Shown one piece after another: positions 57,502 to 64,000 of a DNA stretch of 64,000 bases. The notes under the pieces were generated by a model. That model was given only the letters and a program-made list of their open reading frames with translations, was not told the DNA's origin and did not search any database. The first letter of the stretch is position 1; each line of letters begins with the position of its first letter. The translations under genes were made by a program, and so were the position numbers. This DNA is from a virus, in IMG/VR virus record IMGVR_UViG_3300035698_012504, positions 58,694 to 122,693 of that record; one strand, 5' to 3'.

Positions 57502-58437
57502 ATGATAAATCTTCTTAACGTAGACAAGCTTGTTAGAGAACGGAGATTCAAAGGACCAATCACATCTCCTCAAACATTTCAGGGCAAATCCTTTTCTTTT
57601 CACCCACAGGGGTTACAATCAGAAGAATTGTTTGGCCTCGATGGTTCTCCAGATAGAAGGCAAGCAATGTCATGGGTAGATTTAAATTGTAAACTTATAC
57701 ACCCAGTTATATTTGATCTTATTCAAAAGAGATTAGACAGAAAGATTATTAAAATGCTTTCTGGAGAAAAGACATATAATATTGGGGAAGATGGGCAGTT
57801 GGTGGAAGCCGAAGAAGAAGAAGGCGAGTTAGATGGGTTCACATCATTTGTTCAGAATATAAATAGAATTAGGTATAGAGAAGATGATGACGATGCTAGC
57901 GAAAGAAATAAACTTATCGATGTAGTATATAAAAGTATAAAAAATGGAACTTTCTTCATACCAAAATTAATAATAGTCTCTCCAGTATATAGACCTGTAC
58001 ATATTCTTAAAGAAAAAGGAGAGGTGAGAGAGGATGAGTTGAATGATATATACAGAAGAGTAATTATTATTTCTCACCAAATTGGTAGTGTATCTGGATC
58101 TCTGTATGATATTCTCTGCTATAGATTGCAATTAAAACTTGTAGATTTATACGAATATATTCGTAGCAAGGTATCATCTAAGCACGGGCTGATTAGATCG
58201 TCTATGCTAGGGAAGCGAGTGGACTACTCTGCAAGAGCAGTCATCGCACCAAATCCAGAACTCTCTATTGGAGAAGTTGGAATCCCATTAAGAAATATAT
58301 GTCAAATATTTGAACCGTTCATGGTGTTCGGTTTAATAAATGCCCCGGAAGCAAAATCAATACCTGATGAATTCCATGAAGAAGTTAAAAAATTTCTAGG
58401 AAAAGAATTGGGCGAAGATATAGAAGCGTTAACATAA
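57502..58437 (+). CDS. multisubunit RNA polymerase beta-prime, N-terminal fragment
   Basis: ELNDIYRRVII and MLGKRVDYSARAVIAPNPELSIGEVGIPL...IFEPF match the bacterial beta-prime blocks LNDLYRRVINRNNRL and LLGKRVDYSGRSVITVGP...ELFKPF. Confidence 0.7.
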   Translation: MINLLNVDKLVRERRFKGPITSPQTFQGKSFSFHPQGLQSEELFGLDGSPDRRQAMSWVDLNCKLIHPVIFDLIQKRLDRKIIKMLSGEKTYNIGEDGQLVEAEEEEGELDGFTSFVQNINRIRYREDDDDASERNKLIDVVYKSIKNGTFFIPKLIIVSPVYRPVHILKEKGEVREDELNDIYRRVIIISHQIGSVSGSLYDILCYRLQLKLVDLYEYIRSKVSSKHGLIRSSMLGKRVDYSARAVIAPNPELSIGEVGIPLRNICQIFEPFMVFGLINAPEAKSIPDEFHEEVKKFLGKELGEDIEALT

Positions 58438-58452
58438 CGTAAGGAGAATAAG

Positions 58453-60795: not shown

Positions 60796-63700
60796 ATGAC
60801 TGAAAAAATTACAACAGAAGAAGTGAGATTACTTCTTAAATATATTGCATTGGGATATAAAGTTCCTGATATTGTACACGATGTTATATTCGATACAGCA
60901 GTCAGGGAAGTTGAAAATAAAGACAAGGTAGTATTAATTAAGAGAGATCCGAATATTGAACGAGACAGAATTCAAGCTGTCTATGTCAAAGTAATTAATG
61001 GAAAGACAATGGACATTCACCCCTCTACAGTTGGTGGGTTCGGTGCGGACTTTGATGGTGACATGATGGCGATATATGTCCCTATGTCTAATGAGGCTCA
61101 GGCAGAAGCTAAAAATAAAATGATGTCTGTGACCTCAAATTCTAGTATCAATTCTCCCAACTTCAAATTATCTAATGATATGTTGGCAGGGATATATACT
61201 ATAACAAGAGCAAAGAAGGCAGGAGCTCCTGTTAAGTTAAAGAATCTAGGTGAAGCAAATCAACTAGCTCCTAGTACCCAAATAGAAATAAAAGTTAAAG
61301 GAAAAGTTATTAGAACTACCGCAGGTAAAGTTATATTTAATAATGCATTACCTGAGTGGTACCCATTTATTAATGAAGAGGTTCCGGGTGGATTAATAAA
61401 TGAAATATTATCAAATATTATTAAGAAAAATAAAAGAGACTACGCTAGAACAGTAGACAACTTAATGAAAATTGGATTCTATTATGCTACTGTGTATCCT
61501 CAGTCAATTGGTATAGATATGTTTGAACTTCCTCCAAACATCGAACAGCTCAAGAAAGATCTAGGAGCTACAAAAGATGTAGCTAAACAGATAGAAATCA
61601 TAGATGAGATGGAGAAGCAACTACTAATACATTTAGAAAAGAATGTTCCTGAATTATACATTCTAGTTAAGTCTAAGGCTGCAAAGGGAGCAGGACAACT
61701 AAGACAGATAATGATAGCTAAGGGATTAGTAAGTGACGTATCTGATAATATTCTTCCTCCTATTACTAAAGCTATGAATGATGGTTATTCTCCAGAAGAA
61801 TACTTCGAGGCCTCAGTTGGAGCTAGAAAAGGTGTTGTAGATAGATCTCTGAATACAGCTCACGGAGGATATGCATATAGAAAAATGGTATATGTGATGG
61901 GTAATTTAGAAGCTGATATAAATACAGGTAACTGTAGAACCCAACTCACATTAGATGTTAAGTTAACTAAAGACTTATTTAAAAGAATGCCTGGAAGATT
62001 TATTCAGACTAAAGAAGGTATGGTAAAACCTGTCACTGAGAAGATGATAGGGTATGTAATCCCTCTTAGAAGTCCAGTGTATTGTAAATCAAAAGGAATA
62101 TGTAGAACTTGTTATGGGGAATTAATTAATCAAATAAATACAAGTAATGTGGGAATCGTAGCAGCTCAAGAAGTAACAAGTTTATCAGAGAGAATAATGA
62201 AATGTTCTGCTGGATTAGTACATTATAGAAATGAGTTAGTATGGATAGGAGATATTTTTGATTTTGTTGGTGCTGATGCTGAGGTTAAAAATGAATACGG
62301 ATTAAGAATAGAAAGTAAAAAATGTAATGAAATTGTTGACGGTAAAAATGGTAAGGTAAAAGCCACATCTATTGATAAGCATAAACCAAACGATGATATG
62401 TTGATACTAGAAACTTATTCTGGTAATTTTATAGCATGTCAAGCGAACCACCCTCTATGGATAAAGAGTACGCCATTACACCATCTAAATCCGAATGATC
62501 AATGTAGATTATATGGTAAAGAAGAATATGAATCGTTCGATGATCCATCAAACAGCACGGTAGAAAAGAGACGCCACTTTACTCCTGTAAGCAATGTTAC
62601 AGAAGAAAGACGAGCAGATGCTGTAACAGAATACAATACTATATGGATTGACAATTCAATAGTATATAATAGTTTAGAGAAGAAGCTTAGAACTAATGGG
62701 TATATTCTTGGCACATTTATATTAAATGGAAAATGTATTAAGTTTGATAGGTGGCCTGGTATATGTATAGCAACAAAGAATAATACTATAAAAGAAAGAA
62801 TACTGAAAGAGAATAATAACTTCAAGCGATTTGTTATATTAGAAGACGGCGTAACGTTTAGGAGTCAGAAGGAGAAGGAGAAGAGTATGATAAGAGGAGT
62901 GAACGAAAAAGATTTTCGTTTATGCCCTGACTTCATTAACTTTAATAAGGAATGGTTGAAAGACTTTTTAACAGGATTGATTGATAACAATGGTAAAACT
63001 AAAACAGATGTGTTCTCAACAAGTTCTATATTAGTATTGAAAAGTTATCCTCTTGTTCAACAAGTACGATCAATTTGTATGAAGCTCGGATATACTTTTG
63101 GAATGAAACCTGAAGGTGGAAATATGACAGGAGATGATCTTAGATTTATATGTAAGATTAGATACCCATCTGATTCATACGGTCTTCCGACGTTTGAAGA
63201 AATAGATGAAGTGATACCCTCTAAACATATAAGAAAAACTGTAAAGGGATTTGATGTTATTACTAAGATTCATAGAATTAGATATTGGAATGATGATGTA
63301 TATGATATTAAAACCGAGACAAATGAATTCATGATGGGCATGGTACAGAATCATAATAGTTTTCATTGTATAGATGGAGATATGCTTCTATATATTGAAG
63401 AGGATGGAGAAAAAAGATTAGATTCGTTTAAATCAATATGGGAACACAATAATAATCAAATTAATATAACTGAAAAACAGGAAGAAAAAATAGTTAGTGA
63501 TCTTAAAGTATGGGATACTGATAAGTTTATTAATGTTAAGAAGATAATTAGACATAAAAAAGATCAAGGATCAAAGATGGTAATGGTTAGAGATAAGGGA
63601 GGAGATTTTATAATTTGCCAAGATAATCATCCATTAATGTTCTCTAAAAATACTGGGGTTTGTAAAAAATGCGATACACCATTTATAAAACCAAAGTCAA

Positions 63701-64000
63701 CTGGGGTATGGGAATGTCCAATATGTAGATCCCACCCCAGTAAAGTAACTCATAAATCAAATGAAGCATTTATTGAAGTAGAGCCAAAAGAATTTATTAA
63801 ATCGAAATATTTTACAAATAATAACTTTCCTATATGGAATCAAGAAGTTTATAAAAATCCATTAATCGAACCGTACCTTCTAGGTTTTTTCTTAGCAGAA
63901 GGTAGTTTTATAATGGGTAACTCTAGAAGTTATCCAATTGGTATATGTTTCTCACAAAACGAAGGGGAACTCCTAAATGAAATAACAAAAAAATTAAATA
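60796..64000 (+). CDS. multisubunit RNA polymerase beta-prime, catalytic fragment, 3'-partial, with two inteins
   Basis: Absent from the ORF track because it has no stop inside the window. VLIKRDPNIERDRIQAV...GGFGADFDGDMMAIYVPMSNEAQAEA contains the catalytic NADFDGD motif. VAAQEVTSLSERIMK then SFH corresponds to AAQSIGEPGTQLTMR-TFH of beta-prime. Confidence 0.85.
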   Translation, partial: MTEKITTEEVRLLLKYIALGYKVPDIVHDVIFDTAVREVENKDKVVLIKRDPNIERDRIQAVYVKVINGKTMDIHPSTVGGFGADFDGDMMAIYVPMSNEAQAEAKNKMMSVTSNSSINSPNFKLSNDMLAGIYTITRAKKAGAPVKLKNLGEANQLAPSTQIEIKVKGKVIRTTAGKVIFNNALPEWYPFINEEVPGGLINEILSNIIKKNKRDYARTVDNLMKIGFYYATVYPQSIGIDMFELPPNIEQLKKDLGATKDVAKQIEIIDEMEKQLLIHLEKNVPELYILVKSKAAKGAGQLRQIMIAKGLVSDVSDNILPPITKAMNDGYSPEEYFEASVGARKGVVDRSLNTAHGGYAYRKMVYVMGNLEADINTGNCRTQLTLDVKLTKDLFKRMPGRFIQTKEGMVKPVTEKMIGYVIPLRSPVYCKSKGICRTCYGELINQINTSNVGIVAAQEVTSLSERIMKCSAGLVHYRNELVWIGDIFDFVGADAEVKNEYGLRIESKKCNEIVDGKNGKVKATSIDKHKPNDDMLILETYSGNFIACQANHPLWIKSTPLHHLNPNDQCRLYGKEEYESFDDPSNSTVEKRRHFTPVSNVTEERRADAVTEYNTIWIDNSIVYNSLEKKLRTNGYILGTFILNGKCIKFDRWPGICIATKNNTIKERILKENNNFKRFVILEDGVTFRSQKEKEKSMIRGVNEKDFRLCPDFINFNKEWLKDFLTGLIDNNGKTKTDVFSTSSILVLKSYPLVQQVRSICMKLGYTFGMKPEGGNMTGDDLRFICKIRYPSDSYGLPTFEEIDEVIPSKHIRKTVKGFDVITKIHRIRYWNDDVYDIKTETNEFMMGMVQNHNSFHCIDGDMLLYIEEDGEKRLDSFKSIWEHNNNQINITEKQEEKIVSDLKVWDTDKFINVKKIIRHKKDQGSKMVMVRDKGGDFIICQDNHPLMFSKNTGVCKKCDTPFIKPKSTGVWECPICRSHPSKVTHKSNEAFIEVEPKEFIKSKYFTNNNFPIWNQEVYKNPLIEPYLLGFFLAEGSFIMGNSRSYPIGICFSQNEGELLNEITKKLN
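62203..63357 (+). mobile_element. intein 1 in RNAP beta-prime (LAGLIDADG)
   Basis: Starts CSAGLVHY after ...ERIMK and ends ...EFMMGMVQNHN before SFH. Internal FLTGLIDNNG LAGLIDADG-like motif; block B ...CQANHPLW. Confidence 0.65.
63367..64000 (+). mobile_element. intein 2 in RNAP beta-prime (LAGLIDADG), 3'-partial
   Basis: Starts CIDGDMLLYI immediately after the 3 extein residues SFH. Block B ...CQDNHPLM; zinc-ribbon insert CKKC...CPIC; LLGFFLAEGS LAGLIDADG motif. Continues past the window end. Confidence 0.6.

Follow-up and report, generated by a model that had tools for sequence, protein, structure and literature searches.

The 64,000-nucleotide stretch analyzed here (referred to as the window) comprises positions 58,694 to 122,693 of the IMG/VR virus record IMGVR_UViG_3300035698_012504 and carries, at its 3' end, a gene for the beta' subunit of a multisubunit RNA polymerase (RNAP) that is distributed over two open reading frames (ORFs). 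The ORF at 57502-58437 encodes a beta' fragment of 311 amino acids (aa), here labeled N1, while the rest of beta' resumes at 60796 in an ORF that leaves the window at its end, with three other genes situated between the two (Table 1). We consider it very probable that this is an evolutionarily fixed fission of a zinc-ribbon-less phage beta', which was cut once within the insert of the catalytic double-psi beta-barrel (DPBB) and whose two chains work together non-covalently. An earlier reading of the same DNA (hereafter the original prediction) had reported a beta' split around unrelated genes, and its coordinates and motifs were found to be correct, i.e. LNDIYRRVI (58039-58065) and GKRVDYSARAVIAPNP (58210-58257) followed by a stop codon in the first ORF, and VLIKRDPNIERDRIQAV (60931-60981) and GADFDGD (61042-61062) in the second. 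The three intervening genes, described there as acidic, hypothetical and cupin-fold, are likewise present, the last one matching the Pfam domain Cupin_2 (E 3.9e-8).

N1 consists of the clamp, i.e. the N-terminal helical array, without the zinc ribbon, and further contains the first half of the catalytic DPBB (GKRVDYSARAVI...GIP) and a conserved C-terminal helix (IPDEFHEEVKKFLGKE). It matches positions 1-42 of the Pfam profile RNA_pol_Rpb1_2 (E 3.4e-8) as well as phrog_2986 (E 1.4e-40), and its residues 222-277 correspond to residues 329-383 of E. coli beta'. The second fragment begins with a set of N-terminal helices (TTEEVRLLLKYIALGYKVP) and carries the second barrel half, with VLIKRDPN and the catalytic GADFDGD; its first extein also reaches, by way of Rpb1 domain 3 and the bridge-helix region, as far as the trigger-loop motif ...SERIMK. 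Rpb1_2 is matched here at positions 90-165 (E 1.1e-17), together with Rpb1_3 and Rpb1_5. The NCBIfam profile rpoC_TIGR is similarly divided, with positions 312-376 in N1 and 398-889 in the second fragment, which corresponds to E. coli beta' from residue 405 onwards. Beta' chains in the PDB are matched by the two fragments with E-values down to 4e-38, and the beta' motifs NDxYRR, GKRVDYSxR, an (N)RxPxxH-like motif, NADFDGD and the bridge-helix and trigger-loop segments are all present, in this order, across the two ORFs. As judged from these alignments, the ORF at 57502-58437 and the ORF starting at 60796 are collinear pieces of one beta'. N1 and the exteins together amount to ~1030 aa, which is the size of the unsplit proteins, and N1 and the second fragment are each equipped with a start codon, a stop codon and a Shine-Dalgarno sequence.

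Alignment with eight unsplit relatives maps the break between ...KKFLNLEF and STESLKIIL..., in a turn between two helices, and only ~10-17 residues at the break are new compared to the unsplit relatives. The aligned sequences thereby place the break inside the helix-turn-helix insert between the two DPBB halves, at approximately residues 384-404 of E. coli beta'. This segment is presumably the one called the 'dock', a name that was not confirmed in PMC2939025. An insert at this position of the beta' DPBB has been described (PMC7824862). The point at which cyanobacterial and phiKZ beta' are split is intact in our locus, as rpoC1_cyan (positions 419-518) and rpoC2_cyan (29-320) are both matched within the second ORF. 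This ORF also covers positions 469-509 of phrog_2986 plus 91-413 of phrog_2962, and the match to AR9 beta'C begins at its aa 170. In the phiKZ/AR9-type jumbo phages, beta' is split after the DPBB, at the same place as in cyanobacteria (PMC7598289). The likeness to such split RNAP genes that the original prediction had pointed out holds in part: a phage multisubunit beta' is indeed found in two pieces, with the AR9/phiKZ-type proteins as the nearest ones (~30% identity), but the split site lies inside the DPBB and not after it.

Each chain was also modelled on its own. The AlphaFold model of N1 (52-sequence alignment) has a mean predicted local distance difference test (pLDDT) score of 83, with residues 1-230 being confident, the barrel strands at 237-262 unfolded at a pLDDT <56, and a terminal helix predicted at 289-303. 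Its top Foldseek match is the N-terminal beta' subunit (beta'N) of the AR9 non-virion RNAP (nvRNAP; 7S00_d, E 3.8e-12). For the second fragment, whose model is mediocre (pLDDT 70) and contributes little, helices are predicted at residues 7-18 and 25-40, followed by barrel strands, with low confidence around DFDGD.

The original prediction had furthermore noted the missing zinc-binding N-terminus, from which it derived that either an additional upstream piece exists or the gene is degenerate. The zinc ribbon (CxC...CxxC) is not found in N1, which has one Cys within its first 120 residues, and it is likewise missing in AR9 gp145, in rpoC1 of Listeria phage LPJP1 and in the unsplit, ~1000-aa members of the paralog family to which N1 belongs. 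From residue 2-3 onwards, N1 aligns with the N-termini of AR9 gp145 and LPJP1 rpoC1. By this alignment, the start of N1 is the native N-terminus of its paralog family and no upstream piece is needed. Neither does N1 appear degenerate: a search of 5.8 billion proteins identified homologs in ~55 clusters, with 44-65% identity and all of them 301-337 aa long, and 21 residues are invariant across more than 50 of the clusters. The barrel residues R239, D241 and R245 are invariant, and the C-terminal motif IPxEFHEEVKKFLGKE is conserved, followed by a few variable residues and the stop.

Relatives of the locus were obtained by searching 1.84 billion representatives exhaustively with HMMER and by scanning IMG/VR with a profile; a scan of IMG/VR with a single protein returned nothing, while the profile-based scan did find relatives. 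The N1-like region was encountered in three states, namely as the N-terminus of ~305-aa split-type proteins, as the N-terminus of ~1000-aa unsplit beta' proteins (35-42% identity), and as the N-terminus of proteins ending in an N-intein just after DFDGD. About twenty IMG/VR loci encode the unsplit beta' as a single ORF of ~3 kb. None of the 36 inspected homologs of the second fragment was fused to N1; most of them begin a few residues from the motif TxEEIRxxLKYIxKGYKVP, and a few are extended by up to ~30 residues. A neighbour-joining tree (276 columns, 100 bootstraps) grouped the 13 split-type sequences that were sampled into one clade (bootstrap 81), nested among the unsplit lineages. As the split forms are monophyletic and surrounded by unsplit ones, the tree points to a single, derived fission of beta', from a ~1000-aa single-chain ancestor. 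Within the inspected genomes of the split clade, retrieved from JGI, ENA, Logan and IMG/VR, the gene order N1, gap genes, second fragment is strictly kept.

The presence of genes between the two fragments is an equally constant trait. The original prediction regarded the inserted genes as an oddity, but each of the ten clade genomes inspected has between one and five of them, i.e. one in L010, L015 and L016, two in L007 and L011, three in the window, three to four in L008, four in L012 and L013, and five in L006. A gap without genes was never seen among these genomes, and the gene content is mostly unrelated from one genome to the next. Over N1 and the gap, the window has 100% identity to three assemblies (Logan SRR5581654, ENA ERZ27315667 and JGI 3300023257). 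Spacers between the genes of the window are only 9-21 nucleotides long and a terminator scan found no convincing terminator between the fragments, so that co-transcription is likely. A scan for sigma-70 promoters was uninformative, giving fewer promoter-like sites than in shuffled sequence.

The lineage is one of uncultured, undescribed jumbo phages, in which contigs with two RNAP paralogs were found and in which, unlike in phiKZ/AR9, the large subunits are otherwise largely unsplit. Among cultured phages, N1 has its highest identity, ~33%, to Listeria phage LPJP1, while the unsplit relative P0137 reaches at most 30% identity to any of them; cultured phages with an intact beta' (Rhizobium phage RHph_Y65 and others) are only ~25% identical. 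A megablast search of positions 56000-64000 against cultured phages gave no match. The closest relative is the long-read contig L013, whose beta' pieces are 63-69% identical to those of the window. In the relatives, the beta subunit is a single protein of 1317-1377 aa (1358 aa in L016), encoded directly after beta' and displaying the Rpb2_3 and Rpb2_6 domains. The study of Weinheimer and Aylward (2020) on mReC, a deep-branching clade of RNAP-encoding Caudovirales, required beta and beta' to be at least 800 aa long and to contain the motif NADxDGD, and this length filter would exclude intein-free second fragments of ~720 aa.

The second of the two paralogs is an unsplit beta' of ~900-950 aa that carries a zinc ribbon of the bacterial type (CxC...CxxC) and was identified on two contigs: L049 (9881-12586) shares a 245-kb contig with the locus L017, and L053 (9884-12580) shares its contig with L030, which has the unsplit form of the gene studied here. 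Since it coexists with this unsplit form too, the zinc-ribbon paralog represents a second polymerase rather than a replacement for a dead copy. No second beta' sequence was detected within the 64-kb window. The studied paralog scores 114-129 bits against AR9 gp145 and LPJP1 rpoC1, compared to 77 bits against LPJP1 rpoC_2, and AR9 gp145 is annotated as the N-terminal portion of virion-RNAP beta'. The zinc ribbon is present in non-virion enzymes, although it is not universal in phage RNAPs (PMC7824862). Because the ribbon is missing and the scores against AR9 gp145 and LPJP1 rpoC1 are the higher ones, the split gene probably belongs to a virion-type polymerase.

The second fragment is in turn interrupted by two inteins of the LAGLIDADG type, which were overlooked at first reading. 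The first is inserted between IMK and SFH of the trigger loop, with boundaries that were set against intein-free homologs reading ...EKIMK SFH TGGAV...; it starts with Cys, has an NHP block B and ends in VQNHN followed by Ser, while its match to the Pfam domain Intein_splicing is weak. In relatives, the same site holds contiguous or split inteins. The second intein follows only three codons (SFH) later. It has a Cys start, NHP and a LAGLIDADG_3 domain (E 1e-10), is 25% identical to the first, and extends in L003, a contig that is identical over the shared stretch, to the block F sequence YVYDLTTE, after which that contig ends as well. The unsplit relative P0155 has the same pair of inteins, with TFH as the spacer, and there the homolog of the second intein ends in ...THN|TGGAV. 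Two inteins located three residues apart in an RNAP trigger loop are unusual, though shared with P0155. A further LAGLIDADG intein in the window interrupts a RecA/UvsX-like recombinase gene at 1139-3424 (plus strand), in which Pfam RecA is found at aa 470-683 and LAGLIDADG_3 at aa 342-396, together with PHROG matches to intein-bearing terminase and helicase families at aa 108-478.

Mobile elements of another kind were found at the beta' genes of the relatives. Split inteins flanking a free-standing DUF7487 gene, which has a Vsr-like nuclease domain, occupy the DFDGD site in L008 and L009 and the IMK|SFH site in L007, L008 and L016, and the fractured genes span 11666-16733 in L007, 13916-18863 in L008, 10001-14874 in L009 and 11257-16295 in L016. 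At DFDGD, L006 instead has a contiguous mini-intein. DUF7487 genes are also positioned next to N1: in L013, one is located directly after N1 and is 41% identical (E 1e-127) to the one within the split intein of L007, and in L016 one abuts the start of N1. RNA polymerase is not among the hosts listed in a survey of fractured genes (Dassa et al. 2009, PMC2677866).

Taken together, these results indicate that an ancestral beta' of ~1000 aa was cut once in the turn of the helix-turn-helix insert of the DPBB. N1 would then provide the clamp and the first barrel half, and a second polypeptide would provide the other barrel half, including the Mg-binding DFDGD loop, and all that follows it downstream. 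The two chains would be translated separately, probably from one transcript, and co-fold non-covalently, with the end helices EFHEEVKKFLGKE and TxEEIRxxLKYIxKGY probably packing as in the unsplit protein so as to re-form the ancestral hairpin. To become functional, the second chain also has to excise its two inteins and thereby yield the trigger loop IMK-SFH-TGGAV. The break itself was most likely created or kept open by DUF7487 (Vsr-like) homing endonucleases repeatedly invading the gene, a plausible origin in view of the elements described above, and the space between the halves is a hot spot, with one to five fast-evolving accessory genes in every case.

Several other explanations of the locus can be weighed against such a fission. 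If N1 were a decaying pseudogene in a phage relying on another, intact beta', the unsplit zinc-ribbon paralog would be the obvious candidate for the latter, since it is present in related genomes (L049, on the same 245-kb contig as L017), and a second intact beta' was also what the original prediction had named as evidence for a degraded copy. This paralog coexists with the unsplit form of the studied gene as well (L030 and L053), however, which marks the two as distinct polymerases, and no second beta' was found in the 64-kb window. The kept length and the 21 invariant residues of N1, and the fact that N1 is always followed by a second fragment without clamp and first barrel half, likewise make decay very unlikely. 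N1 could alternatively be an independent factor, e.g. a regulator or a decoy, acting outside the active centre. Some architectural freedom is indicated by P0129 (534 aa, a P0149-like representative), where an N1 homolog (50% identity) continues in frame into an unrelated downstream protein; this downstream part has an ESFYLNENY motif and a four-cysteine C-terminal module and is weakly similar to the 235-aa protein of the window (8.7 bits). In the manner of a Rosetta stone, the fusion may hint that the two associate physically, or it may have arisen by a sequencing artefact. Yet the second fragment has no other source of a clamp and a first barrel half, the three barrel residues mentioned above are invariant in N1, and the gene order is strictly conserved, all of which leaves such a separate role only a slim probability.

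The two halves might also be joined after all, at the level of either RNA or protein. Two group I introns carrying endonuclease ORFs interrupt AR9 gp145, and mobile elements are rife in the studied beta' gene, so the 2.36-kb gap could in principle be a large ORF-bearing intron whose removal gives a continuous beta'. This is hardly credible given that no Rfam intron was matched in 56000-64000 at E-values up to 1 (the only hit being a chance miRNA match), that N1 has a conserved tail and stop while the second fragment has a conserved Met and Shine-Dalgarno sequence, and that the gap differs wholly in length and content between relatives, with one to five genes each having its own start; a fusion of the ORFs would, moreover, add 10-17 residues that are missing from the unsplit relatives. 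Protein trans-splicing by a cryptic, atypical split intein at the junction would have a parallel in the split inteins with DUF7487 at the two other sites of the gene, i.e. DFDGD (L008 and L009) and IMK|SFH (L007, L008 and L016). The stretches not belonging to beta' are too short for this, however, with 3-15 residues in the tail of N1 and 2-25 in the head of the second fragment, and there is no Cys/Ser at position 1, no terminal HN followed by Cys/Ser/Thr and no intein block at either end. As the conserved parts of both ends also align with contiguous sequence in the unsplit relatives, ligation of this kind is exceedingly improbable. Finally, the long-read contig L013 has frameshift noise in N1, which would fit a split that arose artefactually during assembly or gene calling, e.g. 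through a chimeric contig or frameshift. The identity of three independent assemblies throughout N1 and the gap, together with the presence of the same architecture in ten genomes from four sources (JGI, ENA, Logan and IMG/VR), reduces the probability of an artefact to next to nothing.

The fission of beta' into two cooperating chains is thus the reading that we retain, and a number of points weigh against parts of it. The assembly of N1 with the second fragment is inferred, and low pLDDT values in isolated chains are weak evidence, as other beta' regions that contact beta also score low and the model does not include beta. Since both the beta gene and the 3' terminus of the second fragment fall outside the window and the contig, the completeness of the enzyme in this genome is deduced from the relatives. 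The virion-type assignment is based on bit scores (129 vs 77) and the missing zinc ribbon, and the tree is only a neighbour-joining one on 276 columns with moderate support. Neither tblastn nor Pfam identified a homing endonuclease in the gap of the window, and only low-complexity matches turned up when its borders were searched for repeats or target duplications, for which reasons the endonuclease origin of the break rests on the relatives.

The product of gap gene 1 is acidic (isoelectric point 4.3, 26% D+E) with a hydrophobic N-terminal segment, and its only homolog found is a 470-aa gap gene product of L013 (28% identity, E 8e-16). That of gap gene 2 is basic (isoelectric point 10), is predicted to have a single transmembrane helix and carries a four-cysteine module at its C-terminus. 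A word-indexed homolog search with this 235-aa protein returned only itself, while iterated hidden Markov models (HMMs) found homologs in the gaps of L011, L012 and L013; the sole gap gene of L015 (194 aa) has the same layout of transmembrane helix and four cysteines, as judged by eye. Gap gene 3, the cupin gene, has an ortholog in the same place in L013 (34% identity, E 1e-26). The acidic, basic and cupin genes are thus all shared with L013, at just 27-34% identity. Gap genes 1 and 2 had no match in Pfam, PHROG, NCBIfam or PADLOC, the last three of which gave nothing useful for the gap genes in general. We also considered a gap gene set common to the whole clade, which was rejected on the basis of all-against-all BLAST and iterated HMMs, as only the 235-aa family recurs and the acidic and cupin genes are found only in L013.

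A short N-terminal motif, M-x(1-3)-SE-x-[YF]-[IL]-N-E (e.g. MFISEQYLNE), connects several of the genes around N1. It was found in eight of 2458 scanned ORFs (at 56731 in the window; at 10947, 12440 and 12961 in L006; at 11048 in L008; at 7580 and 8639 in L010; and at 10924 in L016), all eight at most 2.5 kb from N1 and in genomes of the split clade only, and in none of the ORFs next to an unsplit beta'. Looser versions of the motif start the 235-aa (59617) and cupin (60346) genes of the window. The motif-bearing proteins are otherwise unrelated, and synonymous differences between the copies suggest selection on the peptide. We take the motif to resemble the capsid-targeting sequence of phage T4, MKTYQEFIAE, which is cleaved after Glu. 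Tentatively, the gap could be a dedicated cassette slot, opened inside the operon by the fission, into which exchange driven by homing endonucleases loads fast-evolving proteins, co-expressed with the virion RNAP and either co-packaged and injected or bound to the RNAP, although we consider this rather unlikely as it stands. Binding to the RNAP is hinted at by the in-frame fusion of N1 in P0129. If the gap is such a slot, its proteins could be anti-defence or host-takeover factors, or accessory subunits of the polymerase.

As for its surroundings, the window is AT-rich (~33% G+C) with nearly all long ORFs on the plus strand. Upstream of the beta' locus is a radical SAM gene, similarly placed in L006, L008, L010 and L012, and a conserved 127-aa gene, the family of which directly abuts N1 in L006, L008 and L010. 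For this reason, the gene of the 252-aa membrane protein that separates it from N1 in the window is an insertion relative to these three genomes. Elsewhere in the window, a 914-aa ORF at 30648-33392 (plus strand) stands out by its G+C content of 46-47%, compared to ~33% in the rest of the window. It matches the Pfam shoulder domain of the major vault protein (E 7.7e-28) and the vault repeat (E 4e-10), without any PHROG match, and a vault-protein-like gene looks unusual in a phage context.

Table 1. Features of the beta' locus and other genes in the window (positions within the 64,000-nucleotide stretch).
Feature	Position	Strand	Remarks
Beta' fragment N1	57502..58437	+	311 aa, TAA stop
Gap gene 1, acidic	58453..59607	+	384 aa
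Gap gene 2, basic	59617..60324	+	235 aa
Gap gene 3, cupin-fold	60346..60786	+	146 aa
Beta' second fragment, extein 1	60796..62202	+	aa 1-469
Intein 1 in second fragment	62203..63357	+	385 aa, LAGLIDADG endonuclease domain
Three-codon extein Ser-Phe-His between inteins	63358..63366	+	Delimited by comparison with intein-free homologs
Intein 2, N-terminal part	63367..64000	+	CIDGDML..., LAGLIDADG; runs beyond window end
Variable gene directly 5' of N1	56731..57489	+	252-aa multi-pass membrane protein, start MYVSEQFINR
Conserved 127-aa gene, upstream synteny anchor	56230..56613	+	Homologs adjoin N1 in L006, L008, L010
Radical SAM gene upstream of beta' locus	55121-56158	+	
EF-hand protein	47892-49544	+	
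T5orf172/MUG113-domain protein	23772-25463	+	
NAD-dependent DNA ligase, full-length	36740-38725	+	phrog_3869, E 1e-184
RNA ligase	27769-28857	+	

Compared to known systems, the closest ones are the phiKZ/AR9-type RNAPs, which include the nearest characterised relatives in sequence and fold (AR9 gp145, LPJP1 rpoC1 and 7S00 chain d). They have in common with our locus that beta' is made as separate polypeptides from non-adjacent genes. Two beta' paralogs per genome, one with and one without the zinc ribbon (PMC7824862), are paralleled by the two related contigs that carry both (L017 with L049, L030 with L053). The differences are that the post-DPBB junction is intact here and the break lies inside the DPBB, that beta in the relatives of the window is one protein of ~1320-1380 aa and not two to three pieces, and that sister lineages have a fully unsplit beta'. 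Identity to cultured phages is, furthermore, at most 33% for N1 and at most 30% for the unsplit P0137.

Another parallel is found in the intein-less genes in pieces that free-standing homing endonucleases have produced, e.g. the SbcD-like locus (Dassa et al. 2009, PMC2677866) and nrdA of Aeromonas phage Aeh1, which is split by mobE (cf. PMC3045599). These also consist of two ORFs that retain the order and orientation of the intact gene and are collinear with its unsplit homologs, and share the phage setting and a function that is presumably kept by non-covalent assembly. Short novel tails are a feature of the SbcD-like locus too, with 25 and 9 extra residues compared to ~10-17 here, and the gap of L013 has a Vsr-like endonuclease gene as well. 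Our locus differs from those cases in that three other genes, and no endonuclease, occupy the gap of the window, that the gap forms an evolving island of several genes which is conserved throughout the clade, and that the host gene encodes an RNA polymerase subunit. With the fractured genes of the split-intein type (Dassa et al. 2009), our dataset shares split inteins with a DUF7487/Vsr-like gene between the halves, found in the relatives, but these elements are not at the N1 junction. The second fragment of the window additionally holds two standard inteins (Cys1, NHP, HN then Ser/Thr), comparable to known LAGLIDADG inteins at conserved active-site motifs. The same beta' gene has been struck at three further hot spots by inteins and split-intein/endonuclease elements, which makes the locus well suited for investigating, in a natural setting, the breakage of essential genes by homing endonucleases.

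Lastly, rpoC1-rpoC2 of cyanobacteria and plastids and A'-A'' of archaea are likewise natural, fixed fissions of beta'/Rpb1, with separately translated chains forming one enzyme. The halves are generally encoded by adjacent genes in both. Here, other genes are always found between the halves and the break bisects the catalytic DPBB, in contrast to the cyanobacterial/plastid and archaeal breaks, which are between domains, i.e. after the DPBB or, in archaea, at another site (PMC7598289). Splitting of subunits is in itself common among RNAPs, and the present case does not establish a new biochemical principle. Nevertheless, a mid-barrel site is not reported for any other polymerase in the literature compared (PMC7598289 and PMC7824862 among it). 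Since this split is kept throughout a diverse clade, two natural chains can contribute the psi-halves of the active-site barrel in trans, which bears on models of a barrel origin from associating half-barrel units and points to a permissive site at which multisubunit RNAPs could be engineered to be split or to assemble conditionally. While the natural splits of the largest subunit in the compared literature, namely the cyanobacterial/plastid, archaeal and phiKZ/AR9-type ones, all fall between domains, the one described here cuts through the catalytic DPBB and is maintained across a diverse clade.

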